A stretch of 64,000 bases of DNA from an uncultured virus (IMG/VR IMGVR_UViG_3300010048_000003) (lineage: Duplodnaviria; Heunggongvirae; Uroviricota; Caudoviricetes), in the IMG/VR virus record IMGVR_UViG_3300010048_000003; one strand, given 5' to 3'. Below are positions 1,192 through 61,942 of this stretch, one piece after another. Under the pieces are notes generated by a model. The model did no database searches and was not told the origin of the DNA. It was given only the letters and a program-made list of their open reading frames with translations. Numbering within the stretch: the first letter of the stretch is position 1; every line of letters starts with the position of its first letter. Made by a program: the position numbers and the translations under genes.

Positions 1192-1964
1192 TTCAGGATC
1201 TCCATCACTTCCGGATAAGCTTTGTGAACGAGATAGCTCTTTTCCCATTTGCCGTACCGGCCGATCCGGGAAATCTCAGGATGACACGTACAGTCGGTAC
1301 TGAGAGGCTTAGCGACAGCAGCTAGCGATTCGCCATTGCTAGGACGTTGTGACCATTCAGTTGTCCGGTAGCCGAAGACGCATGCGCTACGGTACCAGGT
1401 ATGTTCGTCGGTTCCGTCACAGACAATAGTGTCATCGACACTATTCTCTTGTGTCATACTCCCGGTCGCGTATATGACGTGATGCCTGAAGATATGACGT
1501 CGATCGCTACATAGTGCGGGTGCGGGAATGGTTGAGATCATCACGCTAGGGTTGGCGCGGCGTACCTCGGTCGGTAGCTCGCCATCTGAGATGGTTGGAG
1601 CTATAAGGAACTGTACTTGGCCGGGGGTCTCGTGAAGATGCATCCACATCGCCGAGTACGTCATCCTGATATCCCAGGCTTCATGTTCTCCGACAAAGTC
1701 TTCGGGCGAGACCTTGCCCATCCAGCCGTCGCCGTACACCTTGTAACGGTACTGTTCTGGCGTACCGCGCAAGGTGTAGTTGACTACGGTATGTGGCACT
1801 TGTTCGTATCCGGGGACCGGGGCATGGAGGTACTGACATCCATACTGTCGACTACGGCGGTCAGTATTGCTAACGAGCATGACGGTAAGGCCGGACCTGA
1901 CGACAGCCGTAGCTGCCGCCAGACCGGACGGTCCGCAGCCCAGGATGACTACGTCAACCGACAT
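1188..1964 (-). CDS. FAD-dependent oxidoreductase, UDP-galactopyranose-mutase-like
   Basis: Rossmann motif VVILGCGPSGL. YGCQYLH resembles Glf YGxHxFH, and C-terminal IGRYGKW resembles Glf GRLGxY. Shorter than Glf. Confidence 0.65.
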   Translation of the reverse strand: MSVDVVILGCGPSGLAAATAVVRSGLTVMLVSNTDRRSRQYGCQYLHAPVPGYEQVPHTVVNYTLRGTPEQYRYKVYGDGWMGKVSPEDFVGEHEAWDIRMTYSAMWMHLHETPGQVQFLIAPTISDGELPTEVRRANPSVMISTIPAPALCSDRRHIFRHHVIYATGSMTQENSVDDTIVCDGTDEHTWYRSACVFGYRTTEWSQRPSNGESLAAVAKPLSTDCTCHPEISRIGRYGKWEKSYLVHKAYPEVMEILK

Positions 1965-2329
1965 AATATGAATCTTCCATACTCATCTCGTTCCCTCCTG
2001 AACGCTGCTTCTCTTCTCATTGGCGCTATTCTCTTTTGTGATGCGGACATCTTGCTTTTTATTCCATCGAGTCCGTTGTGTCTTTTTGTCTCCCATCCCT
2101 TCCGGTATATATCATCATAAAGGCGATGACATTTTACGCACATAGGCTGATAGTTGTTTATGTCTAGTTCATCAGTGTCGTGAACGTGAGCCCATTCCTT
2201 GGCATTTTGGCCGCATGTACTACACGCGTACTTTTTGGCCTTTCCGCGTTCACGACTAATTCTTTGATGTATACCGTTGTATGTGACGTTATCTTTGTAT
2301 CGTTCTGGGTGGTTGTTATACTCCTTCAT
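1949..2329 (-). CDS. HNH endonuclease
   Basis: CSTCG...WAHVH...NYQPMCVKCH. Confidence 0.75.
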   Translation of the reverse strand: MKEYNNHPERYKDNVTYNGIHQRISRERGKAKKYACSTCGQNAKEWAHVHDTDELDINNYQPMCVKCHRLYDDIYRKGWETKRHNGLDGIKSKMSASQKRIAPMRREAAFRRERDEYGRFILCRLT

Positions 2330-2330
2330 C

Positions 2331-2684
2331 TTAGCCGATGTTGAATATGCGCTGATACAGCAGTTCCTGCTTGTGGAGTAGTATTTGGCGAACTTCGGAG
2401 GTATTCTTCTTGAAGTGCTGCATCGCAAGGATGGCTGTGAGTGCCTGGTCGGCTAGCTCGTCGAGACGTTCCTCTGGCGTCGCGTATACGCCCTTGCGTG
2501 GGTTCTGGCCGGTAACGCCGATCTGGGCATCTACTGCCTCGCCTAGCTCCTCGATGCCCTTGGAAATCCGTGCCCAGTCCTGAGCCAGGGGCTGGTCCTT
2601 GTATTCCTGGCTGACGTTCTCGTCGAGCCATTCATCGACACGGTGGATGATCTGCCAGTCGATCGAATCCTCAAGATAGCTCAT
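2331..2684 (-). CDS. MazG-like nucleotide pyrophosphohydrolase
   Basis: KGIEELGEAVDA...GQNPRKG...DELADQ acidic motifs. Confidence 0.8.
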   Translation of the reverse strand: MSYLEDSIDWQIIHRVDEWLDENVSQEYKDQPLAQDWARISKGIEELGEAVDAQIGVTGQNPRKGVYATPEERLDELADQALTAILAMQHFKKNTSEVRQILLHKQELLYQRIFNIG

Positions 2685-3289
2685 CCTGTGATCCTCGTGA
2701 TTCGGGGGTTGGCGCGGGTTAGCGTGTAGCCTGGGATCTGCCGGTAGCAGACTGTGCTGTTGAAGCTCTGGTAGAACGTGAACTGGTGGAGCGGCGCGGG
2801 CGGCGGCCCGAACGCCTCGGCGATTGCCTCCTGGGTGCTGTGGTCCGAGTACTCAGAAGTCACGGTACGGTCGAAGTGCCATCCTTGGTTGCGGTCGGTA
2901 ATCCCGATCGCGTACCTGGTACCGCCAAGGTACCTGATGTGTACCGAGACGTAGTCTCCCTGGCGAGCTACTTCTGGCACCGCAACATAAGGGTTCGGCC
3001 AGGCCTGAGTCCATACCTTGTACGTAGTATGGCCGTAGCGTTCTGTAGCAGTGAATCCCGCGCGCTCCCTGCCATGATGCCCGAGACCGGCCCATATTGA
3101 AGTTGCTGTTGTTCTGGAACCGGTACTGGCCGACCCGAATAGCCACCAGGCGGTAGTCATTACGGATGTCGGCCCGGCCGCGCATCCCTCCCAGCCTAGG
3201 ACTGATGTTGTTGGAGTTCCCGTGAATGCGGTTGCTGCCATTACCGCTGTTATTGCTGCTGATACTATCATGGCCATTCTCCGGACCAA
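2681..3289 (-). CDS. Secreted protein, possibly G1 glutamic peptidase-like fold
   Basis: Signal-peptide-like N-terminus; SIWAGLG, GDYVSVHI and QEAIAE resemble peptidase G1 motifs. Confidence 0.45.
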   Translation of the reverse strand: MVRRMAMIVSAAITAVMAATAFTGTPTTSVLGWEGCAAGPTSVMTTAWWLFGSASTGSRTTATSIWAGLGHHGRERAGFTATERYGHTTYKVWTQAWPNPYVAVPEVARQGDYVSVHIRYLGGTRYAIGITDRNQGWHFDRTVTSEYSDHSTQEAIAEAFGPPPAPLHQFTFYQSFNSTVCYRQIPGYTLTRANPRITRITG

Positions 3290-3364
3290 ACGGCCCGGAG
3301 GAATTCCGCATGGGTTTCCCTCCGGAGCCGTTCAATCTCTGCCGCTAGGTTCCTGGCGATGGGG

Positions 3365-4186
3365 TTAAAATGGAGGCTCGTTGTCGTCGCCGCCGCCACG
3401 GGCACGACCCCGGCCGCGAGCTGGCGCGGGTTTTGCTGCGGCGGGCTTCGCAGTCGCTCTGGCGCCGCGCTGGCCACGGGCCGGAGCGGGCTTCTCCGGC
3501 TCTTTCGACGCCGCGCGGGTACGGGTACCCCGAGCCGGGGCAGCGGGCTTCTCCGGGGCGCTACGGGCGCTGGCACGGCCCCTTCCGCGCGACGGGGCCG
3601 GTTCCGGTTCCGGCTCCTCCTCAGGCTCCTCCTCAGGCTCCTCCTCAGGCTCCTCCTCTTCGTCTACTGGTTCTTCGTCGGACTCCTCCCATGGGAGCCA
3701 TTCCTTCACGGCGGGCTTGTACTCGCCGTTGTAGCGCTCCCGGTCGGTGATGATGCGGCCCCAGGCCTCATCATTCTCCTCGCCCGGATGGAAGGTGCCG
3801 ATTGAATTGATGGGCGCGCCGTTCTGGTCGTCCTTGTCGGCTACGTCCGTCTTCGTCTTGACGTCCTTGAGCGTGATCCCGTAGTTGTCGAGGAACGGGG
3901 CCCAGCGGAACTTGGCGCCGCCGATCAGCGCGTAGTTGAGCCAGAACGGGCAGCCGTTGAATTCCTCTTCATCGCCATCGTTCTCGGCGGCGAGCCAGAG
4001 GATCTTGAGCATCGGGTCGCCGTTCTGCGTTCGCGTCCACCACATCTTGCGAACGAAGCCGGACAGCTCGGTGTCCTTTGGCGGGACTTCGCCATCGTAG
4101 GTGTCGAACGTCTCGGTTGAGTACTCGATCGCATCGAGTTCATCAACGTCGAGGTCTTCCGTGTCCTCTTTGCGGAGGCGTACCAT
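3365..4186 (-). CDS. Probable single-stranded DNA-binding protein
   Basis: Follows the exonuclease and AAA genes; acidic low-complexity linker; C-terminal DDNEPPF tail. Confidence 0.6.
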   Translation of the reverse strand: MVRLRKEDTEDLDVDELDAIEYSTETFDTYDGEVPPKDTELSGFVRKMWWTRTQNGDPMLKILWLAAENDGDEEEFNGCPFWLNYALIGGAKFRWAPFLDNYGITLKDVKTKTDVADKDDQNGAPINSIGTFHPGEENDEAWGRIITDRERYNGEYKPAVKEWLPWEESDEEPVDEEEEPEEEPEEEPEEEPEPEPAPSRGRGRASARSAPEKPAAPARGTRTRAASKEPEKPAPARGQRGARATAKPAAAKPAPARGRGRARGGGDDNEPPF

Positions 4187-6366: not shown

Positions 6367-7116
6367 CTAGTAGGGTGCCTCCGCACCGGCCTTGGCCGGC
6401 GTACGGCCCCTGCGTCGTGCGGGAGCTGGCGGCGGTGCCGCAGCGGCAGCGGCGGCGGCCTTGGATGCGTTCGACGGTCGACCGCGCTTCCTTGGTGCCG
6501 GCTCTGGCTCGGGTTCGGGTTCAACTTCGTCCTGGCGGCCAGCGCGGCGCGCTTCCCGGCGGGTGATGTTGAAGTCGGACTTCTGGAAATGCGGATACAG
6601 GGATGAGCCGAGAACCAGGAGCTTGTCCACCGGGACATCCTCCAGCGCGGCGACGTTGTCCTCGAACCACGTCACGTAGTCGGTCATCGTTGGCGACAGA
6701 TCCTTGTCCAGATACTTCTGGTAGTCGATCTGGCCATTCTCTTCCGGCTCTGGTGCCGGAGGCGGCGCTGTCTGGGTGGACCTACGTCCCCTGGCAGGCG
6801 GCATATGCGTGTCCTCTCGTTCGGACTTCGCTGAGGGGGTTCCCTTACTCTCCCGAGTATACGCCATCCGGCGAGTGGGCGCTACCCCCTTTCTAGATTT
6901 TTCTCGATGATCTTCGAGCGTGAACCGGCCGCGTCCGAGGTAACGCAGGGTAATGAATCCAGCCGAATTCGGTACCTTCCATTCCTTGTTTGGACGGCGC
7001 TTATCCATGGCTGTATAGTTAAGCGCTAGGTAGGCGTTATCCTCGCTGTAGCCGTACTCATTCATCAGTTCGGCAGCGATCGTCCTAACTCCGCGTCCAA
7101 TCATGGCAGTTGCCAC
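6367..7116 (-). CDS. Hypothetical protein; probable internal start at 6804
   Basis: 249-aa ORF; an internal promoter and RBS precede ATG 6804; core resembles the 18009 and 21313 products. Confidence 0.6.
   Translation of the reverse strand: MATAMIGRGVRTIAAELMNEYGYSEDNAYLALNYTAMDKRRPNKEWKVPNSAGFITLRYLGRGRFTLEDHREKSRKGVAPTRRMAYTRESKGTPSAKSEREDTHMPPARGRRSTQTAPPPAPEPEENGQIDYQKYLDKDLSPTMTDYVTWFEDNVAALEDVPVDKLLVLGSSLYPHFQKSDFNITRREARRAGRQDEVEPEPEPEPAPRKRGRPSNASKAAAAAAAAPPPAPARRRGRTPAKAGAEAPY
6856..6884 (-). promoter_or_regulatory. sigma70-like promoter
   Basis: TAGCGC-N17-TATACT. Confidence 0.65.
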
Positions 7117-9920: not shown

Positions 9921-10730
9921 TCAGAGGCGATCAAGACTGCCTCCATGTATTGCGGAGGCTTCCTGCCAGCCCGGGATGAAGTCATCGAGCATGCGCTGCC
10001 AGGCTGTCCTGAGCGGTTTATCAGGTGTGTTCGTGTAGTCTGGCCACATGCCGTGAATGATGGTCATACACTCTCGCTCGGCGGCCGTGCGCTTCTCTGG
10101 CGCCCTGAAGCGTGTATTGATACCGCCGGGCGCATAGCGCTTGCCGATTGGGTCAACCTTGACATCACAGTGAACGAGCCACGGAATTCCGTTCTTGATT
10201 CCGTGCCGTGCTAGTTCAGCATCCTCGCCGAGTGAGTGTAGCCTGATGTCAAAGTTTCCGCAATCAAGTGTTTTGCTGATGTTCAGGGCGAACACCTGGA
10301 ATCCCCAGCCACCCGGACATAGGATAGGTCCGTGATTACGGGATACCGCGCCCTGAGACATCAGGTCGTGAATGCTACGTGTTGCGCCAATGCCCAGGAC
10401 GCCTGGTTTCTTGGCTTCCTCCAGGAGTTCGTACATGTCTGTGCCGTTCTTCGGGCGCAGGTCATCGTCAGCCATGATGATGGCATCGAGAGCGGTACGG
10501 CTAGCGTGCTTGACACAGTAGTTGCGAACATAGCCAATACCGCGACCGTTCGATGGAGTGGGCAGGATGTAGACTTCCTTGCCCCACTTCATCTCTCGCT
10601 TGACGGCGGTATAGGTGGCGTACTCGTACCGGTCAACTACCAGCCTGACCTGTAGGTCTTGCTCAAGCCAGTACGGCACCACAGTCCTGATGTTGCCGGT
10701 ACGGCCCATAGTTGGAATGTAGACGACCAT
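9921..10730 (-). CDS. Glycosyltransferase, TET-associated (TAGT/GREB1-like) GT-A type
   Basis: VYIPTMGR, GIGYVRN, IIMADDD, GED and PGG motifs in the order typical of TAGT-like enzymes. Confidence 0.7.
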   Translation of the reverse strand: MVVYIPTMGRTGNIRTVVPYWLEQDLQVRLVVDRYEYATYTAVKREMKWGKEVYILPTPSNGRGIGYVRNYCVKHASRTALDAIIMADDDLRPKNGTDMYELLEEAKKPGVLGIGATRSIHDLMSQGAVSRNHGPILCPGGWGFQVFALNISKTLDCGNFDIRLHSLGEDAELARHGIKNGIPWLVHCDVKVDPIGKRYAPGGINTRFRAPEKRTAAERECMTIIHGMWPDYTNTPDKPLRTAWQRMLDDFIPGWQEASAIHGGSLDRL

Positions 10731-11631: not shown

Positions 11632-11852
11632 TATCGTGCTTTGACAATCTCTACATAATATGTGTCGTCGTAGATTTCCTCCCAGCTGTCCTGTACCTGC
11701 TTGGCCTTGTAGTATGAGTCTACAGTTCTCCTCTTGACTTCGCGGCCATTAGCTCGCCGGAGTATTGCGATATGCTTGTTCTTCTGCTCGGCACGGCCAT
11801 CCCTGTTTTCGCCTCGCATGGCCCGGCTGCTGTGAGATCTGTTGAGTGCCAT
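11631..11852 (-). CDS. Hypothetical protein
   Basis: TAATG coupling on both sides. Confidence 0.55.
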   Translation of the reverse strand: MALNRSHSSRAMRGENRDGRAEQKNKHIAILRRANGREVKRRTVDSYYKAKQVQDSWEEIYDDTYYVEIVKAR

Positions 11853-12235
11853 TAGTCTATGATCCCGTTGTCTCGCATCGCTTGTTCATCCATTCCTCCC
11901 ATGATCTGCTCATCGAGCGGAGTAATGGTCACCGCTGCAGTAGCGGCGCCATTTTTCACACATGTACTGCAGGAGACGCTCGGGTGATGAATACACTCAT
12001 CACATGCCCACTTAATGCGGACGTGCTCCTGCTGGCAGATTGCCTTATACTGCCTGGTCGTCGGGTTGCCGCATGGAATCTTGAGCGGGCCGGTTAGAAC
12101 CTCGCACTGCTTTGTTGCGCTTGCGACGCCTTCCTGTACCATATTCGTGATCCTTTCGTAGTGGTTCGAGCCATGCCAGGAATTCATCAATTTCCTGATC
12201 GATGCGCTGCTCCTTTTGATTGTACCAGATCATCA

Positions 12236-12442
12236 TTATCCTTCCGCTAGGGAAATGTATTTCGGGAGTGCTTCCCAGAGTTCTAGTTCATCGCTGTCAG
12301 TTACATATATCAGGTACCATCCTTCCTTATCAAAATCATCATAATGCGTAGGCAATATCGCATGTACAACTCCTTCGTGTGTGTATACATCTTCGACATT
12401 GATGATGATTCTAGTCCCCTCTGGGAATGGATGTATAACCAT
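12236..12442 (-). CDS. Hypothetical protein
   Basis: Coupled ORF in the leftward run. Confidence 0.5.
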   Translation of the reverse strand: MVIHPFPEGTRIIINVEDVYTHEGVVHAILPTHYDDFDKEGWYLIYVTDSDELELWEALPKYISLAEG

Positions 12443-12663
12443 TCTTCTGACACCTTGACCCAGAAGTGTCGTGGGCCGCCGGACTTCATGAAGAAGCTGA
12501 TGCGGGTGCCTTGTGGCGTTACCGGAGTGACTTTCATGTGATCGACACCCTCCGGCAATCCGAGAGTCTTGAACGTCGGCAGGTCTGAGTTATCGGCCGT
12601 GAGGAATAGCTGGATGTGATTCCTAACGAAGTCACGTACTGGGTCACGGAGCTTACCACTCAT
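12310..12663 (-). CDS. Hypothetical protein (in-frame TTA at 12436-12438 at the junction with the next gene)
   Basis: AGGAG RBS; the ORF runs about 130 nt into the next gene after the TTA. Confidence 0.55.
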   Translation of the reverse strand: MSGKLRDPVRDFVRNHIQLFLTADNSDLPTFKTLGLPEGVDHMKVTPVTPQGTRISFFMKSGGPRHFWVKVSEEWLYIHSQRGLESSSMSKMYTHTKELYMRYCLRIMMILIRKDGT

Positions 12664-12829: not shown

Positions 12830-13084
12830 TCATAGCAGATCGCTTGTCTTGACGTTGCTTGGCGCGGTATAGATACTGCTGCGTGTGCCTGAAAACTGGC
12901 TAATCGTCCTGAGGCGAGCAGTAACGCCAGGGTGGGCATCATCCATATGCTTCTGGAGAGCGGCCATTGCCTGGCGCGGAGCACTAACACTCTGGCTGCC
13001 GAATGGTAGTGGACTATGTATCGGGCATGTGAACTGCCATACCCCATCTTTGATATGGGTAGCAGTTAGTACTTCGAGTGCCAT
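12830..13084 (-). CDS. Hypothetical protein with C/H metal-binding residues
   Basis: Directly downstream of a promoter and RBS. Confidence 0.55.
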   Translation of the reverse strand: MALEVLTATHIKDGVWQFTCPIHSPLPFGSQSVSAPRQAMAALQKHMDDAHPGVTARLRTISQFSGTRSSIYTAPSNVKTSDLL

Positions 13085-14751: not shown

Positions 14752-15051
14752 CTACTTCTTGGTGTCGTTGTTAGTCGGGCGCTCACGATCAGCTATGACG
14801 ATGGTGTCTGGCTTGGTCTCGCTGATCTCGTCAGTGTTCGGGTAGTAGCCACGAACATACTGACCGACCGCGCCATGCCGGAGTTCACCGCCGTTCAGGC
14901 GCGGCTCGATGATGACCTGGCCGTTGGCGATGTTAGGGCTGACCCACTCGACATCATCCATCGTCGCGAGTTGCGATGCGTGGTAGACGTGCGTAGTGCC
15001 GAAGATGACCGGTGTCGACTGGCCATGGAACTTGACGAGTACATAGAACAT
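14752..15051 (-). CDS. Hypothetical protein
   Basis: TAATG-coupled ORF. Confidence 0.55.
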   Translation of the reverse strand: MFYVLVKFHGQSTPVIFGTTHVYHASQLATMDDVEWVSPNIANGQVIIEPRLNGGELRHGAVGQYVRGYYPNTDEISETKPDTIVIADRERPTNNDTKK

Positions 15052-19464: not shown

Positions 19465-19553
19465 GTGTTCAGTCCCTGAGCACGGAACAATCTCGAAACT
19501 TGTTTCCGCTGCGTCAGGAGGCAGTCCCTCTGCGGAGGGTACCCTCCTTGCGG

Positions 19554-19799
19554 TCAGAATTCATAGCAGATGATGACCGGCTTGTTGAAGTACTTGGCAT
19601 CTGTGGTCGGTGATGGCGCAACAAGCCAAACACGATCATCAATGCCCATAGCCACTGCCCACTTGACTGCGTGGTTCATGTCTGGGAACGCGATGAATAT
19701 ACACGTGATGTTGTGATCATCGACATCAGCAACCGCACGGTAGAATGCGATTGCCTCATTGACGTGATCAAGCGGTGTCAGCTCAGCAACGGGCTCCAC
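19554..19799 (-). CDS. Hypothetical protein
   Basis: GGAGG RBS before GTG. Confidence 0.55.
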   Translation of the reverse strand: MEPVAELTPLDHVNEAIAFYRAVADVDDHNITCIFIAFPDMNHAVKWAVAMGIDDRVWLVAPSPTTDAKYFNKPVIICYEF

Positions 19800-20006
19800 A
19801 CGACCTCCTCATGCTTGGGTGGCTTGGCGTCATTCGGGAACTTGTCCTGACGACAGTATACACCAGGATGAATGCGGTATGCGTTGATCTCGATCCTGAT
19901 CCTGTCGTCAGTCGTCTGCGGTGGCCATTGCTGGTCACACAGGAAACATGTCCACGTCGTCTTGCGCGGAATTCCGGTATTCACTTGTATTGACCCTCCT
20001 TGTTGG

Positions 20007-20261
20007 TCAGTCCTCGTGGACGAGGTTCATGAGTGCTCGTGCTGCCTTGTGTGGGTTGTGGTAGCGTCGCACGGCACGCTCTGGCATGCCATCACCAGGA
20101 CGGAAGGCAACCGCCCATCTGGTTTCTGCTTCACGCTCGACAATGACCCTCTGGACTTCGCCAGGCTTGGCGCCAGAGACTGTCATCGTTCTGCCCTTGC
20201 CACGGCCGATGTTCATCGTCCATAGCAGGCCCACAACGAGATCTTCGTGGTCCATAAGCAT
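20007..20261 (-). CDS. Hypothetical protein
   Basis: AAAGGA RBS before MLMDHED. Confidence 0.5.
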   Translation of the reverse strand: MLMDHEDLVVGLLWTMNIGRGKGRTMTVSGAKPGEVQRVIVEREAETRWAVAFRPGDGMPERAVRRYHNPHKAARALMNLVHED

Positions 20262-20407
20262 TCCTTTCTTGAGTTTTGACAGTCCATCTGAGGACTGGAA
20301 TGCCGGAGGGTATCTGTACCCTCCGGCAAACCAGCTACCAGATGTCACCTATGTCTTTGGGGTCTGGATTCATGGAATCCTCGCCAACGAGCATGACTAG
20401 CAGGCGA

Positions 20408-20626
20408 TCAAGCCACGCGGTCATTCGCCAGCTCCACTCGGTTGCCCATGCGGTCGCAGGTGTAGCCATAGCCAAGCTGCATGAAGAGGACCCTAGCAGC
20501 ATTGGCGGCATCATCACGCTCACGATCAAGCATGAAGTTCGGCTGGTGGAGCGCAGCCATGAGGACATGCGCTACAGAGTCGGCTTCACGCTGGGTCATA
20601 CCCAGTGCGATGTTCTCACTGTTCAT
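20408..20626 (-). CDS. Hypothetical protein
   Basis: ORF in the early gene run. Confidence 0.55.
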   Translation of the reverse strand: MNSENIALGMTQREADSVAHVLMAALHQPNFMLDRERDDAANAARVLFMQLGYGYTCDRMGNRVELANDRVA

Positions 20627-21149: not shown

Positions 21150-21312
21150 TTGGCTCCTCTATGTTGTTTTTCGACCTGGCTCTTCAGCTCGGGTAGGTCA
21201 GCTCCCGAAGACACAACACGCCCATCGGTGCTATGTTTCGCCTGTATTCGATTTTCGGTAAAGCGGAGGGTTACCCTCCGGATTTCTCCGGAGGGTAATC
21301 CTCGCGAAATTC

Positions 21313-21684
21313 CTAGACGTTAAGGTCCGACGACTGGAAATACCGATACGCCTTACTCGCGATCGTAACGAGCCGCTCCGTACGATCGTCCGCGCGGCCG
21401 TTTTCGCCTAGCGCGATTCCGAGTCCCGGATATTCCCGCGCGATCCACTTCGTAAAGCCGACCATAGCGCGCGGGATATCCTTAGTCCCGTAATTCCCGG
21501 GACCGGAATTTCCGCGCGACGCGATAGCCGCCTCTTTTTCGGCGCGTAGCGACTCGATTTCCGCGCGAAGCCTCGCGATTTCGAGTAGTTCGCTCTCGGA
21601 AACCGGCGCGGGAAGAGTAGACGTCTTTTCCGAGACTTCGCCCTTAGCCGGGGTCGCCTTAGAGGAAATAACGCTTCGCTCCAC
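21313..21684 (-). CDS. First early gene, with CA/TG-purged coding sequence
   Basis: Paralogous domain to 18009..18497; directly downstream of two tandem promoters. Confidence 0.75.
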   Translation of the reverse strand: MERSVISSKATPAKGEVSEKTSTLPAPVSESELLEIARLRAEIESLRAEKEAAIASRGNSGPGNYGTKDIPRAMVGFTKWIAREYPGLGIALGENGRADDRTERLVTIASKAYRYFQSSDLNV

Positions 21685-21770
21685 TTTTTTCTCTTTTCTA
21701 TTTCGGGGTAGCCGAATTAAGCCGGACTTTTCCGGGTTTCGGGTACGCCTATTACGAGCCCGTCGAGGGG

Positions 21771-21941
21771 CGATTTTTAGAAAACGCTACCGCTTTTTAC
21801 GCGCCGCGCTTTTTCGCGAAATTCGCGTTTCCGCGTTTCCCGCTACCGCTAGTCTACCCGAGTTTCGCGTTTTCCGCTAATCGGCTCGTTTCGCGTCGCG
21901 AAAGTCCTAACCGATTTTAAGGAAACGCTACCGCTTTTACG
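21771..21941. repeat. Imperfect ~30-bp direct repeat pair
   Basis: CGATTTTTAGAAAACGCTACCGCTTTTTACG (21771) and CGATTTTAAGGAAACGCTACCGCTTTTACG (21912). Confidence 0.75.
21851..21879 (-). promoter_or_regulatory. Early promoter
   Basis: TAGCGG-N17-TAGACT. Confidence 0.65.
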
Positions 21942-21990
21942 AGCGAGTCGCGAACCGTCGCGATCCGGAACTTCCCGGCCCGACGAAAAA

Positions 21991-22019
21991 AGACTACCCG
22001 ACCGGTTTCCGGGAAGCGA
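21991..22019 (-). promoter_or_regulatory. Early promoter
   Basis: TCGCTT-N17-TAGTCT. Confidence 0.6.
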
Positions 22020-22244
22020 ATAAGTCTTTCGAAGGACTAGTCTTCGGATTTCGTTCGAATTACGGAAGGGGTAAATTCGAAAACCGCGCCGCGCGTCGCG
22101 AACGGCCGGAACCGCTACGATACCCCTAGACGGGCCGGAAAGGCGCCTCTCGCGCGACGAAACGCCGGTCGCGGGTATTAGCTAGGGTCCGTTTTCCGAC
22201 GCCGCTACGGCGAAAAGATATCGAAAGACTTTTACCAATAGTCG

Positions 22245-23078
22245 TTCGTAGTCGAGTAAGGTCAAACGTCGCGATCGTAGTCGACTAAGGTCAAACGTCT
22301 CGTACGTAGTCGACTAGACGATCGTAGTCGAGCGCTACGTTTGTAGTCGACTAGCTCGTTCGTAGTCGACTACCCAAAGGTAACGATTAGGTTACGGATT
22401 TGGTATATAACGATCTCGTAACGCTCTATCGTAGTCGACTACTAGACTGCAGTCGACGACGTCGACGACTACGAACGTAGTCGACTACTCAAAGACGTAC
22501 GAACGTAGTCGACTAGTCAAACGTAGTCGACTAGTCAAACGTAGTCGACTACTCAGATACGTACGAACGTAGTCGACTACTCGACTACAATAGAGCGCTA
22601 CGATTGTAGTCGACTACTCGATTGTAGTCGAGTTCGCGATTGTAGTCGACTACTCGACTACAATAGAGCGTCGCGAGTGTACTCGACTACAAACGAGCGC
22701 CATCGGTGAGGGTGGCGAATTCTCGAAGCCCATCGGTCGCAGTAGGGAGTTCCTATTTGCAGTCGACTACAGTCAGGGAGTTCCTATTACAGACGACTGG
22801 GGTCGAGTGGGATGGACTGCAGTCGACCGGGGTCAGATGGGGTCGACTACCCCCGGCTGCACTCGATGCGAGGCGAACCCAATCGAGCGCAGGTGACTGG
22901 GCTGGACTGTAGTCGACCCCAAGCGAGCCCATCGGTGGCCCATCGGTCGCAGTCGACTACACCCAGAGTGCAGACGTAGTCGGTCGATCGTCCTCAACTG
23001 CATTCGAGTGTAGTCGACCGCAATTTACTGCACGCGACGCCCATCGGTGACGATTGGCCGCAGTCGACTGCAGTCGAG
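22245..23078. repeat. Array of GTAGTCGACTAC-like palindromes with CCCATCGGT repeats
   Basis: More than 20 full or partial copies with irregular spacing. Confidence 0.9.
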
Positions 23079-23199
23079 GCCCATCGGTGGGGGGCGACCC
23101 CCTGGGAGGAGGCTTCTCCCAGACCACGAAGTGTAGTCGTCTAGAATCGCAACTAATTTCGATATCTGTTCTGTATTGGCTTCATTGGCATATACGGAC

Positions 23200-23246: not shown

Positions 23247-23921
23247 TTACGGAATGGTGTTCCACATGAACGTGGAGGCGTGGTTGTGGCTCACGTTCAC
23301 CAGCCGCTGTGCGTCCACGTTACCGGACAGGTGCCCGGGCGCGTCGATCGCGAGGTGGTGATCGCTGTTCGCCGCCTGCGGGGCCCAGAGCACGAACGTG
23401 TAGCCGTGCGTGGCCGGGTTGACGAACGGAGCGGTATCGGTCAGGATGAAGGCCTGGTTGGCCGCACCGTCGCAGCTCTGGAGCGTGGTCTTCGTAGCGC
23501 TCGGCTGGAGGCACCATCCCGAGTCCTGCCCGAACGGCGTGAACTCGATGGAGACGATGGCGTCGCCGCCGTAGTGGAGGACATCGAACGCGGTCATGCC
23601 GTCGCTGCCGTCACCGACGAAGTCGTCGTAGTTGAGGGTGAAGTCCTGCGAACCGTCCTGGAGGTCGTTGGAGATGTTCATCTGAACATTCGCTCCGGCC
23701 TTGGGCGTGCCGACGACAGTCAGGCCCGCGTCCGAACGCGGGTAGAAGTCGTGCGAGCTGATCGCAGACTGCGCCACCACGATGCCCGAACAGCCGTCGA
23801 ACATTGCCTGGCAGGCGTCAGTCGCGTCGGCGGGCCGGACGTTCGCCGAGGCAACCCCACCCGCTGCCGCGAAGACGCCGAGCACTGCTGCTGACATGAG
23901 TACTGCTGACTTGCGGAACAT
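23247..23921 (-). CDS. Secreted protein, ricin-B-lectin-like
   Basis: Signal peptide ending ASA; WCLQ...LQSCDGAANQAF motif. Confidence 0.6.
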   Translation of the reverse strand: MFRKSAVLMSAAVLGVFAAAGGVASANVRPADATDACQAMFDGCSGIVVAQSAISSHDFYPRSDAGLTVVGTPKAGANVQMNISNDLQDGSQDFTLNYDDFVGDGSDGMTAFDVLHYGGDAIVSIEFTPFGQDSGWCLQPSATKTTLQSCDGAANQAFILTDTAPFVNPATHGYTFVLWAPQAANSDHHLAIDAPGHLSGNVDAQRLVNVSHNHASTFMWNTIP

Positions 23922-26791: not shown

Positions 26792-27963
26792 GTAACAACA
26801 GTGACAACGGGAACCGGCCACTACGACGTGGCGGCGTCACGTACGTCGATAGCAATTGGCAAAGCGATGTCAATTCTGCCAGCAACGGACATCGCGTCGG
26901 GAAGGTGACTCTCGCAAGCGACTATACAATGAAGAAAGTCCATTGGGGATGGGCTAATGGCAGACACGAGCGAATCCCGATAGGCGAGCTAACCCTAACA
27001 GCAGGACATGGCGAAGCGGGGAAGAGTACGTTCAATCTTGGCCTTATAGCTCAGCTTACGCTAGGCGAACTAGATGGGTACTGGTATGGAAAGCCTCAGT
27101 TCTGTATCATAGCTGCCTCGGAGGATGACTGGGAGCGGACCATCATACCACGTCTTGTCGCGGCCGGGGCGGATCTCGATATGATAGGCGGTCTTGAAGT
27201 TATTACACAAGAGACTCCGGACGGCGAGATCATCAGCTTGCCAAAAGATTACGGCGAGCTAGAAGCAGCTATCGACAAGAACGATGCCTCATGGGTGTTC
27301 TTCGACTCGATAGTCGGGGCGATAGACCTAGCCCGTGACACGAATCATGGGCAACATGTACGAGACATCCTGATGAAGCTACAGTCTATCGCACGACGGC
27401 AGAACTGTGTCATAATCGGGAACGTACACTTCAACAAGAACAATGCCGCGGACGCCATGGAGCGAATGTCTGGATCACAAGAGTTCCGGAACGTCTCCCG
27501 AGCCGTCATATACCTGGCAATGGATGAGGATGGGATAGGCGTAATCTCGAAGCAAAAGAACAACCTAGGACGGTCATGGCCGTCTATTGCCTACAGGATT
27601 GAAGAGATCCTAGTTGATGAAGAACAGGAAATTACAGCCGGCACAATCATGTTCCTAGGCACAACTGACAAGGATGCTTCCGAGATAATCAACAGGAAGC
27701 CCGCCAGGAAGATGTCAGGCGCGCTAGTCGACCTTATCGACGCGCTTCAGGCGATATTTAAGGTGCAGAAAACATGGAAGAAAGAGGACATAATAAACCA
27801 GCTAAGAGAGGCTGGAGCTAGTACCAATGAGGCTACTTTGAATAAGGCCGTGGATAAGCTTGGAATCGAGAAAAAAGCAGTCTATAAAAAGGCCGGAAAG
27901 GGTATCGATTACTGGGAATGGACCGTCGAAAAAAGCGGCTCAAAACAAAGTCCTCGGATCTAG
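26788..27963 (+). CDS. AAA_25/RepA-like replicative helicase
   Basis: Walker A GHGEAGKS, SEDD, VFFDS, HFNK, KNNLG. Confidence 0.85.
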   Translation: MSNNSDNGNRPLRRGGVTYVDSNWQSDVNSASNGHRVGKVTLASDYTMKKVHWGWANGRHERIPIGELTLTAGHGEAGKSTFNLGLIAQLTLGELDGYWYGKPQFCIIAASEDDWERTIIPRLVAAGADLDMIGGLEVITQETPDGEIISLPKDYGELEAAIDKNDASWVFFDSIVGAIDLARDTNHGQHVRDILMKLQSIARRQNCVIIGNVHFNKNNAADAMERMSGSQEFRNVSRAVIYLAMDEDGIGVISKQKNNLGRSWPSIAYRIEEILVDEEQEITAGTIMFLGTTDKDASEIINRKPARKMSGALVDLIDALQAIFKVQKTWKKEDIINQLREAGASTNEATLNKAVDKLGIEKKAVYKKAGKGIDYWEWTVEKSGSKQSPRI

Positions 27964-28062
27964 GCGATAGACCCGGGCACCGCCTCCCCCTCTATATCGA
28001 ATTTATATATATATATATAGAAGATATAGCCTAGGGGGCGGTGCCGGACCCTATCGCCTAGA
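27959..28062. other. Probable replication origin: inverted repeat around a (TA)n core
   Basis: TCTAGGCGATAG/CTATCGCCTAGA and GGCACCGCC/GGCGGTGCC arms flank an AT-only centre; directly after the helicase. Confidence 0.55.
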
Positions 28063-30305: not shown

Positions 30306-31974
30306 ATGAGTACATTGGTAGCGCCACGTGACAGACTGGTTACGCTTCCTGAAGGCTTGCCTGAGCTTACGCTTGGGTGGGAAGCGATTCACTGGGCATC
30401 CAAGTACCTTTTACCTCAAGCAGCCAGACGGGCCGGACGCCGGGAACCGGTGGGAGTTCACGGAATCGCAAGTGCGATTCATACTTTGGTGGTATGCGCT
30501 AACGCCCGAGGGGCGCTGGATGTTCTATCACGGAGTGCGCCGGTACCCAAAAGGTGCCGGGAAGTCTCCGTTTGCCGCGGTGTTGGCGATGATCGAGCTA
30601 CTCGCGCCTGTCCGCTTCTGGCGATGGGACTCCGACGCGCCGGGCGGCGTCGTTGGGAAAGCGGTGTCGATGCCGCTCGTACAGATTGGCGCAACGTCAC
30701 ATGACCAGGCCAACGTCAACACAATGCGGATGGTGCGGGCGCTACTGCCCAAGAAATCGCGAATCCTGCGAGACTATGATGTCGAAGCTGGCAAGACAAT
30801 ATTCCATGTGCCAGGCGGAGGACAACTCATGGTCATCACGAGTTCGCCAACTACCGAAGAGGGTGCTCTTGTCACCTTTGCGATACTTGATCAGACCGAG
30901 TCGTTCACTGCCACCAACGGAGGAATAGCGCTTGCCGAAGTCATGGACCGTAATGTTGGTAAGTCCGGCTCGCGGATTATCGAGACGTCAAATGCCTGGG
31001 AGCCGGGCGCGGGGACGGTAGCCGAGACTACATTCGATGCGTGGGTGTCGCAAGAAGAGGGCAAGCTCAAAGGGAAGGGTAAGATCCTGTATGATTCGCG
31101 AATGGCCCCTCCTGATGTTGATTTCGATGACGTATCATCCATACGCAAGGCGGTTGAATTCGCGTATGGCGATGCTTTCTGGGCTGATACTGATGATATC
31201 GTTGAGAATCGTATCCTCTCGCCGCGTACGCCGCTAGATGTGTCCAAGCGATTCTACCTAAACTGGCCGGAGTCGGCCGAGGATGCGTGGACCACGCAGC
31301 AGAAGTGGGCACGACTGTCAGATCCAGAATTCAGGATCAATGACGGCGACGATATTACTATGTTCTTCGATGGATCGAGGACTGATGACGCTACTGCACT
31401 GGTTGGATGTCATGTGGAAACTGGTTTCGTTTTCACTCTTGGTGTTTGGGAGCCGCTGGGTACGCGTAATGTACCGGTTGATGAAGTCCACTTTGCTATA
31501 CGGTCGGCACAAGAGAAGTGGAATGTTTGCGCATTCTTCGCGGACGTCAATGAGTGGGAAGAGTCAACGAAGATTACGTGGCGTGAGTGGTTTGAAGAGG
31601 GCCTTGATATATGGGCTGTCCCTTCTGGGCGTGATCCACAGCCTGTAGCATGGGATATGCGCTCGCATACTGCGGAGTTTACGCAGGCATGCGAGATGGT
31701 GCTTAGCGAAATCGAGTCTCCGGGTGATCCAGTATTCTGGCATGATGGAGACTCGGCGCTAGGACGGCACGTTGTTAATGCTCGGCGTCGGCCGAACCGC
31801 TGGGGCATAAGTATTGGTAAGGAAGCACCTAAGTCGCCAAAGAAAATCGACGCCTGTGTTTGTATGATTGGCGCGAGGCATGCTCGTCGGCTTGTACTCG
31901 GATCTAAAGCGTACAAGGAACGCCGGGCTATGGCAGCCAAGAGCGGCAAGCGCAGAGTATGGAGTTTTTCATGA
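30306..31974 (+). CDS. Terminase large subunit; needs a 7-nt bypass or +1 shift at 30408-30417
   Basis: N-terminus TLGWEAIHWASKYL in one frame; LKQPDG, PKGAGKS and FFDGSRTDDATAL in the +1 frame. Confidence 0.9.
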
Positions 31975-52100: not shown

Positions 52101-53390
52101 CCGACTAACTGGGGATATTATTTTGACAATTGTTCAGTTAAGCTTTTCACGAGCGTGCCTGCGCCACCTGATCAAACGGTATGGGTCGATGTACTTAACA
52201 CCAACTTCGTTAGTCAAGGTATGATCCAGTTCGCGACTGTCACCGCGACGCTCTACTACAATGCGGTTGGAACATGGACTATCCTAGCGCCGTACTCGGA
52301 CTGGTTGTGGAAAATCGCTACCGGCGGTGACTTCATCGTCAGAGTTAACTGGCGCAACATGTTTGAATTTGGTGGCAAATGTGAACAGCCAGGGTACGTC
52401 GATTCGATGCCTGGCTCGACCGGCGCGGGATCTGGGCCATCAGGTAGTTACTCCGGTCCATTTATAATGCTGACCGGTGGTGACTATCTTCAGATACTCG
52501 CAAACCGGATATGCTATCCAGATCCTACTAGCGACTGGGCACATCAGCGTCCATCGAATAAGGATATAGTTGTCAATGTCCCGCTTGAGACAGCTATCAA
52601 GCATTATGTTTCGGTGAATGCTGGACCTGGTGCATTGTCTGCGCGTAGACATCCATCACTAGTTATCGCTACTGATCAGGGACGTGGTCCGGCTGTAAAC
52701 TATAGTGTTCAGTTCACGTCGGGCGTTGATCTTGGCCTGCTCGATGTTATACGCGCGCTTATCGCGCAAGCCTACCCGACGAATGTTGCTGGAGGTATGG
52801 GGTTTAGGATTACCAGAACAGGCACCAATCTTACATTCGACGTCTTCACGCCGGTTGATAAGTCGCAGACTGCGTACTTCTCGGAACAGCTCGGGAACCT
52901 TACATCCATCAACTTCTCTTTGACAGATCCAACATGTACTGATGCTCTTGTACAAGGTGTTAATAGGTTCGTGTCACAGACTAATTCGGCCGTCACCCCA
53001 TGGACTAAGACTGAGGTGTATGTTGATGACACTTCGAATGCGGATGCTAAGACTCTTACTACCACGGCACAAAATGAATTGTTCTCCGGTACATTCGGGC
53101 CTACCATGGGCGTAACCGCTTCCGATACGCCGTTCTGTATTTATGGACGTGATTATGTACTAGGCGATATAGTGACTGTCGAAGTCCGTACGACTCCGAC
53201 GCTCATATCGTATACTGATGTTGTTTCTAGTGTACAGCTTACTGCCGATCCTTCACAAAGTCCGATACTGAATGTTATCCCCACAATAGGGAACTCTACT
53301 GATCCAACGTCCTCGGGCAAGACCCTTACCAATCAGCTTACTGCGCGTATCAAGAAACTTGAGAAGAATATGCGGGCCAAGGGAAGATGA
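49149..53390 (+). CDS. Large minor tail protein: adhesion domains fused to a C-terminal baseplate hub domain
   Basis: C-terminal ~400 aa with YNAVGTW and YGRDYVLGDIVTV; lectin-like N-terminal modules. Confidence 0.75.
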   Translation: MSVDQFLINPDFADEYFEGGTPGNVIDTTHTTFNNVTNSYANAYFSIFGYAGQGCNAWGQTYTFGNDVGMGGWNVLPSSGQAYSQIANFQSYPPRNVIIARMQTSASAAIADLVLQTNGYLQIVNNSSVGLVTSNKPVPLNKWVMINFTVFPDPSKGYAKIDIFYSPTEAVPDDTSSMNNLAIPGGSPGKAWFGLETRFAVTWNAEAITNLSSSVAVASSLAVFQANGFTYTDTNFGHNQTIPNPASATFTSTHTKSVDWGVELHTIPYAYGASPAPSINYINTYNQFAEIPQGVNIGTYTGASATSHTCTVTGGGSLANCGIFVAVAMGGFGASSATVTDSAGNVYTQVGSLNLDGYTNVPLLVFQANQPSKALISGTSTVTVTPNAATPCNFSITYVYNLTAMVTLRDSEHATSASISTATGALPSIAQTVLTFIYSGGAGGTPAFGSNTTFVSNTQGQGVGLVTVGFQTNTGSGSVATTATLPSGSAAWCAMTFSATTVVVTGHFNIQQAVASRYVYIMVCTSGAVSGSPVIADNHGNAYSQIAFIALPTGQRVFLMQSNAAVTFAINDWYTITSGYAINGWSEVFSMIGLTATATVYDDTGTSATPTVPNVTIGTGNHAVLWIGGNDTEAEVVPVGFTHLNPGSGSGGTGGYAGVYAGLGVAYYADRTGTMVINPDWIYDDFNAAIVYTGNWGNTQNGQNLTPPATWYGGTQHFSNITGNYATLNFNMPMSGSLYVQFSVDTNRGIGSISIDGGTAVLIDTYSSTLHNNFIVWESPVLARGSHTIVITVTGTKNAASSAYYVGIDAFSNMPIVSGYGTIPSGDSSLVNIVSTNVATSGSFSVTDTQGNAYTLVMSNTAPGNVVSQFVFACLSPKALGASDTISVTCTTYFEGYASAYGMQGLYSLLATAPGGSVTSNTVDMKVSVSNSWAPVLISATVAVIGSVPSPNGLWTAIDNLAMSGTLAGTISQNLSFNVMSNGMPTNWGYYFDNCSVKLFTSVPAPPDQTVWVDVLNTNFVSQGMIQFATVTATLYYNAVGTWTILAPYSDWLWKIATGGDFIVRVNWRNMFEFGGKCEQPGYVDSMPGSTGAGSGPSGSYSGPFIMLTGGDYLQILANRICYPDPTSDWAHQRPSNKDIVVNVPLETAIKHYVSVNAGPGALSARRHPSLVIATDQGRGPAVNYSVQFTSGVDLGLLDVIRALIAQAYPTNVAGGMGFRITRTGTNLTFDVFTPVDKSQTAYFSEQLGNLTSINFSLTDPTCTDALVQGVNRFVSQTNSAVTPWTKTEVYVDDTSNADAKTLTTTAQNELFSGTFGPTMGVTASDTPFCIYGRDYVLGDIVTVEVRTTPTLISYTDVVSSVQLTADPSQSPILNVIPTIGNSTDPTSSGKTLTNQLTARIKKLEKNMRAKGR

Positions 53391-55312: not shown

Positions 55313-55496
55313 TCTTGACTCCATCTTCTACGGCGGCCTGGTTGCCGTCGGGATTATCGTAGCTACTGCGATATATGATGAGATCAAGATTAATGCTTAC
55401 GAGAGAAACCTCGGGGTACCGCCCTGTGTGAGGAAAGGGAAGAGAAGATGGATTATGAGGAGAAGCGCGAGGATGAGGCACCGCGCGATCCACTAG
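55305..55496 (+). CDS. Small membrane protein
   Basis: One hydrophobic segment. Confidence 0.45.
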   Translation: MFSLDSIFYGGLVAVGIIVATAIYDEIKINAYERNLGVPPCVRKGKRRWIMRRSARMRHRAIH

Positions 55497-55630
55497 CGCC
55501 GCATCTCCGGCAGGTCACTCCGGTAGTCGAGCCTGCCGAAGAGGGGCACGAGTTCTGGGCGAACCCAGGAGACGACGAAAGGCCAGAGTCAGATCTGGCT
55601 CAGCTTACCAGAGGTGCGGAGGAGCAGTAG
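55448..55630 (+). CDS. Small acidic protein
   Basis: Abuts the endolysin start. Confidence 0.5.
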   Translation: MDYEEKREDEAPRDPLAPHLRQVTPVVEPAEEGHEFWANPGDDERPESDLAQLTRGAEEQ

Positions 55631-57223: not shown

Positions 57224-57507
57224 CAGAGAGATCGCCAGAAGTAACACCATTGGCCAAGCCTGCGGTGCCTGCGACGTACTCGGCGCTCATAAGCGGTAGT
57301 GGCTGGTATGTCATCTGGGGATCAACTGCGCCGAATCCTGGCATGACTCAGATGATTATTGCCTTCGGACTTGGCACTACTAGCAACGTCATCGAGCCAA
57401 TAGTGTCTAGTGCAGGTGTCCCTACTGCCGCTACATCTATCAGTACCGACTACCTGCTAGCGAACCCGCAAGAGAACCAGGCCTATACCGGCCTTACTGG
57501 TACGTAG
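57220..57507 (+). CDS. Hypothetical protein
   Basis: ATGA overlap. Confidence 0.5.
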   Translation: MTERSPEVTPLAKPAVPATYSALISGSGWYVIWGSTAPNPGMTQMIIAFGLGTTSNVIEPIVSSAGVPTAATSISTDYLLANPQENQAYTGLTGT

Positions 57508-57717
57508 TCGGCCGGTTACGTAGAGCGACGTATAGCTACGCGGCTCTAGGATCGATTCTAAGAGCCTATCGAGCCTAGCCGTACCCGAGAGTCCCGGGAG
57601 GGGGAGATAGGCCCGCTCCGTTCGGCTCCGGGCCGGCAAGGAGTCTGTCTTTCGGGCCGGTTCGGAGCCGGTAGGGCCGAGGGGTATGGTTTAGACATAG
57701 TCGACCGTAGTCGACTC

Positions 57718-58330: not shown

Positions 58331-58576
58331 TCACTTCCCATGTTCGTGATCAACTTCGCCGTACAGGCTTAGCCGGTGTATGGTGTCGTGGAATGTGCGA
58401 TAGCACTCTTCAACGTAGTCGCTGGCGAATGGTGGTAGAGTGTACTGTCCGGCGAGAGATTCGCTATGCCTAACGGACATATGTTTTCTGAAGTTCCATT
58501 CATCCATGTCATCAGCATTCCTGACGACTATCTTGAGATCTACATTCTCTTGCGGTGTCATGGTTACCTCCATCAA
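58331..58576 (-). CDS. His-rich hypothetical protein
   Basis: KHMSVRH...HDTIHRL..DHEH. Confidence 0.6.
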   Translation of the reverse strand: MMEVTMTPQENVDLKIVVRNADDMDEWNFRKHMSVRHSESLAGQYTLPPFASDYVEECYRTFHDTIHRLSLYGEVDHEHGK

Positions 58577-60822: not shown

Positions 60823-61001
60823 ATAATTTCCCAGCTTCCATGGAATGCGTTAAAGAACCAGTCATTCCGGCCGTATAGGGAAAGCTCATTGAAAAGAAAT
60901 TCATGATCCATCTCGTCACTGTAGCCGGTATCGATGATGTAGAAACCGCATATCGCACAGAGGCCGACGACATGACTGATGTAGATGTCCTGCTTCACCA
61001 T
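60819..61001 (-). CDS. Small ORF inserted between the two dnaE parts
   Basis: Overlaps both neighbours; CAICG. Confidence 0.55.
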   Translation of the reverse strand: MVKQDIYISHVVGLCAICGFYIIDTGYSDEMDHEFLFNELSLYGRNDWFFNAFHGSWEII

Positions 61002-61942
61002 GGCTCCCAGTCGGAGTCTTTGATTGGGTAGGTAAGTCGTTCTGCCTTTGGCAGGGTTACCGTACATTGCTCGGCTATGCGCTCAGTATTGAGGATAGCC
61101 TCCCATGCTGCGGCGCGGGATAGGCCGGTCTTCATCAGGCGTTCGCCGAGTTGCTTGTCGGACTCGGGGAACGTCATAGGGACGTCATAGTTCCAGGCGC
61201 GTAGTGCGTCGTCTATGGATTGGTTCTTTCGGTGTACTGCGTGGAGTATAGCCTGCATCTCAGAATCTGCTGGTCTGGGGTAGTGGACATCACACGTTGC
61301 GACAAGTGGAACTCCAGTCTCCCGGCTGAGACGTTCGTAAGCTGGATTGATGCGGCAGGTCTTTTCAAGCTCGTAGAAGGGCTGGACTTCGAGGTAGTAA
61401 TTGGCCCCAAATAGAGAGGCAAAACGGCGGATGACGCGTCGTGCGTCATCCCATCCATAACCGTCTCTAGACGTGGGATCGGCGATCCCCTTGCCTCCGA
61501 CAAGAGCGCATGCGAGCATGCTACCAGTGCATCCTGAAAGTACGACAAGATTCTCGTGATTGTCGACCAGATTCTGTCCAGAAACTGTCGGATGGTAGTG
61601 ATGATCTCGCCAAGACTGTGTGACAAGGCGGTTGAGGTTTCGGTATCCATTTGCGTTCTCCGCGAGGATCGTGAGGTGATACTTCCATTGGCTACGGTTT
61701 TCGCCTACCGGCCCGCAGTACGCCTCTAGCCCAAATATCGGCTTCAGCCCTAGCTTCAGGGCGGCCTGCTCGAACTGGAAGTGACTAGACGTACCGCCAT
61801 GCTCTGTAAGGGCTTGCGCGGTATAGCCTAGCTCTACAGCCCGCGCTACGTGGATAGCTGGTAGCTTGTGGCCATCACCGTGACTGAAGGTCGAATGGTG
61901 TAAGTGGTGAAGTGATACGTAGCGTATCTTGTTCTTCACCAT
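60995..61942 (-). CDS. dnaE: DNA polymerase III alpha, PHP domain of a split gene
   Basis: HSTFS.GDG, ALTEHG, KPIFGLEAY, HLTILA, TCDVHY. Confidence 0.9.
   Translation of the reverse strand: MVKNKIRYVSLHHLHHSTFSHGDGHKLPAIHVARAVELGYTAQALTEHGGTSSHFQFEQAALKLGLKPIFGLEAYCGPVGENRSQWKYHLTILAENANGYRNLNRLVTQSWRDHHYHPTVSGQNLVDNHENLVVLSGCTGSMLACALVGGKGIADPTSRDGYGWDDARRVIRRFASLFGANYYLEVQPFYELEKTCRINPAYERLSRETGVPLVATCDVHYPRPADSEMQAILHAVHRKNQSIDDALRAWNYDVPMTFPESDKQLGERLMKTGLSRAAAWEAILNTERIAEQCTVTLPKAERLTYPIKDSDWEPW

Follow-up and report, generated by a model that had tools for sequence, protein, structure and literature searches.

A transcription unit purged of CA and TG dinucleotides in an uncultured siphophage, and its possible relation to DNA modification

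Here we describe an island of 991 nt from which the dinucleotides CA and TG are almost completely excluded, located at 21245-22235 (no strand) of a 64,000-nt stretch of DNA (hereafter the window) from an uncultured virus (Caudoviricetes; IMG/VR record IMGVR_UViG_3300010048_000003). The CpG-rich island retains 4 CA/TG where ~121 are expected and, as read from its sequence, covers one transcription unit, running from beside a regulatory array through a leader and a gene to a terminator. The constraint is strand-symmetric, blind to coding and tied to this unit, which points to some feature of double-stranded DNA at TG:CA steps. We propose, at a probability of roughly 0.4, that the unit is a cassette kept unmodifiable by a DNA mark placed in TG context elsewhere in the phage genome, where we infer both the modification and its context. 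A search of the literature in full text returned no account of such a local CA/TG-free region in any phage.

Extent of the exclusion

Relative to expectation from base composition, the island contains CA 3 times instead of 58.5 and TG once instead of 62.8, while CG is raised about two-fold (156 versus 78.4); AA/TT (observed/expected ratio, O/E, 1.6-1.8) and GA are raised too. The depletion is strand-symmetric and affects coding and non-coding DNA equally. The remaining CA/TG are found at positions 21335, 21446, 21463 and 21682, with none at all across 21683-22235, leaving CA/TG-free runs of 554, 219, 111 and 92 nt; the longest run elsewhere in the window is 139 nt. A run of 554 nt has a probability of ~1e-27 of occurring anywhere in 64 kb, given CA/TG at 0.124 per position, and in 200 first-order Markov simulations of the genome the longest run averaged 62 nt, with a maximum of 88 nt, which together rule out chance as the cause. 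No other strand-symmetric dinucleotide has a comparable gap in the window, except for a 298-nt CC/GG-free stretch within the neighbouring repeat array. The left border of the island is found immediately past a terminator hairpin (21266-21303), and to the right of the island a milder depletion (O/E 0.24-0.4) extends to ~22700.

A preliminary description, made from the sequence alone, had reported only four CA/TG in ~990 nt and none from 21685 to 22235, had placed the four in required codons (GTG start, ATG, TGG and CAG) of the open reading frame (ORF) 21313-21684, and had noted a protein lacking His and Cys with no CA or TG at codon junctions. This account of the sequence is correct in all details, the empty stretch beginning already at 21683.

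Organization of the island

On the minus strand, an array of the palindrome GTAGTCGACTAC is followed by a leader, a gene of 123 codons, a hairpin, the motif CACCGATGGGCG and further early genes. The island gene, P0001 (21313-21684, minus strand, 123 aa), encodes a coiled-coil region and a conserved C-terminal domain. Its retained CA/TG lie in codons GTG1, ATG74, TGG80 and CAG117, and the Met, Trp and Gln codons that hold the three non-start ones specify residues invariant in the protein family. No His or Cys is encoded, and no CA or TG is formed at codon junctions. The constraint is strong: across the island genes described here, canonical start codons, His and Cys have been removed, and Gln, Met and Trp are down to one invariant residue each. 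P0001 had no match in Pfam, PHROG, NCBIfam, PDB sequences or Atlas, and its family is small, with 7 homologues in a set of 5.8 billion proteins; 11 further loci of the family carry genes of normal composition. Two proteins of the window are related to it. P0004 (18009-18497, minus strand, 162 aa) is a paralogue of normal composition, with 75 CA/TG versus 58 expected and a TGA stop, and a third protein with the P0001 C-terminal domain (6367-7116, minus strand; hhalign probability 93.8%, E 1.8e-7) is located in the recombination/replication module.

Directly after the P0001 stop codon, a terminator-like hairpin (21266-21303, minus strand) with 17-nt arms and a 4-nt loop marks the end of the island; matching hairpins follow the island genes of loci L003 and L002, as judged by eye. 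Upstream of the gene, the non-coding leader (21685-22235, minus strand) spans 551 nt with zero CA/TG; a 27-nt sequence occurs twice in it as a direct repeat (21771-21797 and 21912-21938) and may be a promoter or operator in duplicate. No sigma-70-type consensus promoter was scored within the island. Next to the leader lies the palindrome array (22248-23144, no strand). It comprises 26 copies, counted with up to 2 mismatches, of GTAGTCGACTAC, a perfect palindrome of 12 bp that is itself free of CA and TG; the window has 31 matches, 26 of them in the array, against 2.49 expected. These likely serve as operator, iteron or centromere-like sites. The array also carries two promoter-like sites on the minus strand (22649-22621 and 22631-22603). 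The motif CACCGATGGGCG (21219-21230, minus strand) falls between the island terminator, to which it is close, and the early genes that follow, and 5 further minus-strand copies are interspersed in the palindrome array at 22727-23089. It clusters here, with 6 of 10 copies on one strand in this region, although its window-wide count is not above chance, and it is present around the islands of loci L002, L003 and L050 too.

Other origins for the constraint were considered. A conserved non-coding RNA in the leader is unlikely because the leaders of relatives do not align; Rfam at gathering thresholds and a tRNA scan gave no match in the window. A purely RNA-level constraint is likewise unlikely, as two unrelated dinucleotides would have to be avoided where one DNA step accounts for both. 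Foreign origin is rejected, since the GC content of the island equals that of the genome and P0001 has paralogues in the genome.

Conservation among relatives

G003 and G004, IMG/VR phages with ~45-80% protein identity to the window across the genome, carry one CA/TG-free island each, of 684 and 689 nt, respectively. Both islands adjoin the same palindrome GTAGTCGACTAC and end past a terminator hairpin (by eye); in both, the unit is inverted relative to the window with its internal layout kept. The island leaders of the three genomes barely align. Pairs of islands differ at 195-235 aligned positions, none of which creates CA or TG, as compared to ~30% of random changes (log10 P ~-39 to -43), and a strain variant in one soil run has 6 single-nucleotide polymorphisms in the island, 0 of which make CA or TG, where 33% of random substitutions would. 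The three island genes keep 3-4 CA/TG versus 45-48 expected and encode no His or Cys, and the CA/TG kept in all three are only those of the family-invariant Met, Trp and Gln codons. In G003 and G004, the island frames have no ATG, GTG, TTG or CTG ahead of the invariant internal Met, and conservation of a block just upstream suggests that ATT or ATC serves as the start. Each of the three genomes also has a paralogue of normal composition, with 51-75 CA/TG versus 53-58 expected. As the depletion is strand-symmetric, coding-blind and held through ~195-235 substitutions per pair, it fits selection at the DNA level.

A second, smaller CA/TG-free islet of 139 nt (57498-57637, no strand) is situated between the converging late and DnaE operons. 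The corresponding position is CA/TG-free over 175 nt in G004 (23713-23888) and 224 nt in G003 (31492-31716); at this position G005 has no gap of at least 76 nt, and G006 has one of 68 nt. The islet is strongly hairpin-forming (fold z-score -3.4), and its sequence is not conserved. The flanks of the islands are among the most CA/TG-dense and CpG-poor DNA of each genome (window 19500-20500; G004 52500-53300; G003 1-700 and 2800-3200).

Further examples were difficult to recover. The G005 contig begins within the palindromes, short of any island position, and wider searches by palindrome pair or by a single helicase protein recovered only the same phage. Ten loci found with the RuvC-like gene show no island in the available DNA, 8 of which have at most 2,041 nt past the match and are thus uninformative. 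The palindrome array is a recurrent break point in metagenome assemblies of this phage group (window ~23130; L037-L045, L050 and L031), and a neighbouring island would therefore be hidden in most contigs. DNA and protein searches of cultured phages gave no match for the region, for P0001 or for the glycosyltransferase homologue described below. Five small ORFs without family matches (11852-12190, 12310-12663, ~12830-13084, 14752-15051 and 55448-55630) are common only to the three island-bearing genomes, in a comparison of 3 versus 2 genomes.

Proposed role of the cassette

Based on these observations, we propose the following. The island would be a self-contained unit of regulatory leader, one small gene and terminator, which selection keeps free of the TG:CA step and thereby free of a modification specific to this sequence context. 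The mark would most likely be a bulky thymine derivative, probably glycosylated, at the T of 5'-TG-3' on either strand. The cassette would then stay plain DNA in the virion, and host RNA polymerase and regulators could use it on genome entry; the neighbouring operator palindromes, likewise without TG and CA, would share this property.

We favour an unmodifiable cassette because TG is a published context of thymine hypermodification, because the genome encodes a homologue of the TAGT glycosyltransferases and because its replication genes are distantly shared with the TG-modifying phage F8. Specifically, dapT is reported at nearly all TG of Acinetobacter phage 15599, with PhiW-14 behaving alike (PMC13458397), modified T is described at TG/TC in M6, ViI and PhiW-14 (PMC6449724), and the Pbunavirus phages F8 and 14-1 are described as carrying sugar-derived thymidines in a TG motif (PMC12191111). 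The T-before-G context of these phages, taken on both strands, is the dinucleotide excluded in the window phage. F8 and the window phage share a DnaE-like polymerase and ThyX at 33% and 30% identity, respectively. The candidate modification enzyme is a DNA-glycosyltransferase-family protein (9921-10730, minus strand) that matches Pfam TAGT (PF20691) at 39.7 bits with a cut-off of 27.5 and PHROG 842 with E 1e-12, the latter annotated as beta-glucosyl-HMC-alpha-glucosyltransferase; homologues score above the TAGT cut-off in G002, G003, G004, G006 and G007, and below it in G005. A further parallel is the 5mYOX pathway, which is post-replicative, sequence-specific, acts on T and prefers TG: the phage T-dioxygenase 5mYOX176 is reported to have an NTG preference and to be ParB-dependent, and glycosyltransferases are given as the commonest neighbours, present in 31% of 5mYOX-type contigs (PMC13229309). 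The window phage shares with this pathway a TAGT-family glycosyltransferase; it differs in having no detected Tet_JBP domain and no ParB-like protein, the latter in Pfam scans of the submitted ORFs.

Several observations weigh against this proposal. The TAGT match spans only the first ~90 of 205 profile positions. Tet_JBP (PF12851) was found in 0 of 3 relatives' records at E<=1 and in none of the scanned ORFs of the window, although many phage 5mYOX enzymes are stated to be missed by the Pfam TET/JBP model (PMC13229309). A ThyA-type hydroxymethylase had no match among the scanned window ORFs; only a ThyX-type (Pfam Thy1) thymidylate synthase is present (63301-64000, minus strand), cut by the window end and 297 aa long in the sister contig. 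The family scans of the window likewise gave no DNA methyltransferase, and neither a DNA kinase nor an aGPT-Pplase, the presence of dedicated profiles for these two in the libraries being unchecked; a phrog_415 'polynucleotide kinase' match at 215-922 appears HAD-phosphatase-like by Pfam (weak). Past the island terminator, CA/TG content is normal or high in early genes that likewise have to be transcribed from the incoming genome. G006, a relative of 100% completeness with the same candidate genes, has palindromes and a gene copy at the same place and shows only partial depletion (O/E 0.12-0.5 over ~700 nt), its gene being ATG-started and of near-normal composition, and the mycobacteriophage PBI1, the nearest cultured relative, has no CA/TG-poor region. 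Such a region is also absent from M6, F8 and 15599, which are reported to modify T at TG or TG/TC (minimum O/E 0.60, 0.51 and 0.81, respectively); a TG mark alone therefore does not force an island. Finally, TGCA is the most under-represented tetranucleotide in 5 of 5 lineage genomes (window and G003-G006; O/E 0.16-0.33, z -12 to -16). The window has 64 TGCA sites versus 193 expected, 8 of the 64 at 22448-23069 within the repeat array; PBI1 shows no avoidance (O/E 0.92), and M6 is similar to the lineage (O/E 0.34). Such a pattern resembles the usual effect of restriction on a TG-containing site that has no protection; with TG sites shielded from an enzyme cutting TGCA, it would not be expected.

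The preliminary description had suggested a bulky mark in CA/TG context from which the region escapes. The DNA-level constraint, the TG precedent and the TAGT homologue support this part; the lack of a detected hydroxylase or kinase and the island-free genomes of M6, F8 and 15599 speak against it. Its further suggestion that the island is the first-injected DNA is not established, the island being located ~6 kb from the HNH-TerS-TerL block with the presumed cos site, itself placed by inference.

Comparison with other phages

The closest parallel outside the lineage is the cultured Escherichia phage WFH (L065), a member of Wifcevirus, a genus described as distantly related to Pbunavirus (PMC11990801). 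WFH has a 3,701-bp direct terminal repeat, and its only CA/TG-poor zone (O/E 0.12-0.5 versus a genome median of 1.18) lies at 1600-3600, in the inner half of this repeat, with an identical copy at the right end. The zone is CpG-rich and holds small genes with annotated terminators. WFH and the window phage share a DnaE-like polymerase and ThyX at 29-36% identity, and each has a single local CA/TG-depleted, CpG-enriched zone over small genes with their own terminators. WFH differs in that the depletion is ~3- to 8-fold and not total, start codons are normal and the zone is part of a terminal repeat. It has no TAGT match and does not avoid TGCA (O/E 1.05). Judging from these genomes, two phage groups that differ greatly, both linked to relatives with a TG mark, share local CA/TG depletion, and the window is the most extreme case. 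The papers on TG-modifying phages describe the mark and not a mark-free zone, and the window phage differs from those phages in that no genes of a 5-hydroxymethyldeoxyuridine kinase pathway were found.

As a putative small autonomous early unit, the island would resemble the first-step-transfer (pre-early) region of T5-like phages and the leading early region that T7 has, units that have to act ahead of protection or expression of the remaining genome. Neither is known to exclude a dinucleotide, and no terminal repeat or defined end was found for the window phage. Avoidance of restriction sites or short palindromes similarly reflects selection against a short DNA word, as the lineage shows genome-wide for TGCA. 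The island differs in that a whole dinucleotide is banned, only locally, and down to start codons and amino-acid content.

It is conceivable, though we hold it only tentatively, that phages marking their DNA in a given sequence context use exclusion cassettes in general, each providing a start-up unit of plain DNA beyond the reach of the mark. The excluded dinucleotide alone would then tell both that virion DNA is modified and in which context, here T in TG. Such cassettes would have had separate origins in this lineage of soil siphophages and in the Wifcevirus myophages, whose only common ground is a distantly related DnaE/ThyX replication module. If the proposed role of the cassette is correct, a transcription unit written in a reduced dinucleotide alphabet represents a new kind of genomic feature, and context-specific DNA hypermodification of uncultured phages could be predicted from sequence alone. 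A further question would then be what a bulky thymine mark blocks early in infection: promoter recognition, elongation, regulator binding or recognition by modification-dependent nucleases. The milder form in cultured WFH makes the usual phage-host experiments feasible. Even if the modification reading is wrong, a conserved and absolute local ban on one base-pair step needs explaining.

Alternative explanations

The TGCA avoidance bears on an alternative already raised in the preliminary description, a host defence that recognises CA/TG. In this view the DNA is unmodified at TG, and the cassette evades a host defence or enzyme acting on unmodified TG/CA sites or on the TG step itself, for instance a nuclease with a short recognition motif, a toxin that modifies bases or cleavage of the topoisomerase type, thereby protecting the first-working DNA. 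We consider this unlikely. A most-avoided tetranucleotide in five lineage genomes but not in PBI1 is a classic restriction-pressure signature, and the position of the WFH cassette in a terminal repeat fits as well. Defences specific for a dinucleotide do exist, an example being CmdTAC, which reportedly recognises GA. However, ~120 dinucleotides have been removed where only ~3 TGCA sites are expected in 1 kb, and protecting 1 kb leaves the other 63 kb exposed. TGCA avoidance is moreover equally strong in G006, where depletion is only partial, and in G005, whose contig shows no full island, and WFH has its zone without avoiding TGCA. To our knowledge, no defence recognises every CA/TG. It is rather unlikely that the same TG mark exists but that the benefit is another one, the unmarked cassette being invisible to nucleases that recognise hypermodified DNA (Type IV or END-type), or appearing host-like to a phage shut-off factor, for which T4 Alc is the model, and being expressed immediately early as a result. 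The island gene is small, belongs to no known family and forms the first unit beside the regulatory array, and the paralogue of normal composition in the main early operon fits two expression regimes. In agreement, END nucleases are described as attacking hypermodified phages early, with F8 and 14-1 needing inhibitors to form plaques (PMC12191111). A cut elsewhere in the genome would nevertheless still end the infection, and F8 needs its END inhibitor yet has no CA/TG-poor zone; furthermore, database searches gave no function for P0001, and the modification itself would have to be assumed here as well.

The location of the purged zones raises the view that they are replication or segregation landmarks and not expression devices, the array and island acting as an origin or centromere-like region and the islet as a terminus, where priming, unwinding or protein spreading could proceed only if the flexible TG:CA step, or a priming or cleavage motif containing it, is missing. 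The 26 clustered palindromes adjoin the island, primase-polymerase and helicase genes are nearby, strand and AT skew switch at the two zones, and the points of gene divergence and convergence are half a genome apart. We nonetheless regard this as quite improbable: the zone borders are exactly those of gene and terminator, the coding gene inside bears a large cost, no origin stands out clearly from GC skew, the unit is inverted in G003 and G004 with the same internal layout, and the WFH zone consists of small genes in a terminal repeat. A mutational cause, i.e. local context-specific mutation or biased repair from TG/CA to CG, such as T:G mismatch repair toward C:G in a recombination hotspot, would account for the ~two-fold rise of CG, which is one transition away from TG or CA, and is compatible with the CA/TG-rich, CG-poor flanks in G003 and G004. 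Such a process is highly improbable, as the sharp borders coincide with the transcription unit and the survivors are confined to family-invariant codons; forbidding CA and TG alone also raises CG, and AA/TT and GA rise too. We know of no mechanism that would confine such a mutation bias to 1 kb for this long. The cassette kept free of a TG-context mark stays our preferred reading.

Genome context

The window represents a nearly whole siphophage genome, with TerS, TerL, portal, capsid, tape measure and endolysin on the plus strand and replication/recombination genes on the minus strand. Two IMG/VR contigs of the same phage, both of which break at the repeat array, close the map into a circle of ~64.7 kb with no repeat at the join. 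Four soil runs were covered, all of them assembled contigs and with no RNA run listed; in X1 and X2, contig depth at the island equals that of the flanks, and with the circular map and this flat depth no long direct terminal repeat is found at the island. The DnaE-like polymerase and its counterpart in Cluster D mycobacteriophages have 46% identity. The host is probably an actinobacterium, because the relatives of an FAD-oxidoreductase-like protein are found only in Gordonia, Microbacterium, Mycobacterium, Streptomyces, Arthrobacter and Nocardia phages.

Strand and AT skew switch at ~22 kb and ~58 kb, the sites of the two CA/TG-free zones, and half of the 64.7-kb map separates the gene divergence point at ~25.6 kb from the convergence point at ~57.6 kb; GC skew across the map shows no clear origin signal. 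Just upstream of HNH-TerS-TerL, a large inverted repeat centred on a (TA)n run (27962-28062) may be a terminator, cos-related or origin-like. ORF 2681-3289 matches Pfam Peptidase_A4 (E 1.3e-9), which is unusual for a phage early region, and is absent from G003-G006. A 273-aa protein at 3365-4186, for which no family match was obtained, has an acidic, Pro/Ala/Arg-rich C-terminal half that ends in DDNEPPF, by eye resembling the tail of a single-stranded DNA-binding protein. The DnaE-like polymerase is split, with a separate PHP-domain gene upstream of the core gene (58573-60822, 60995-61942).

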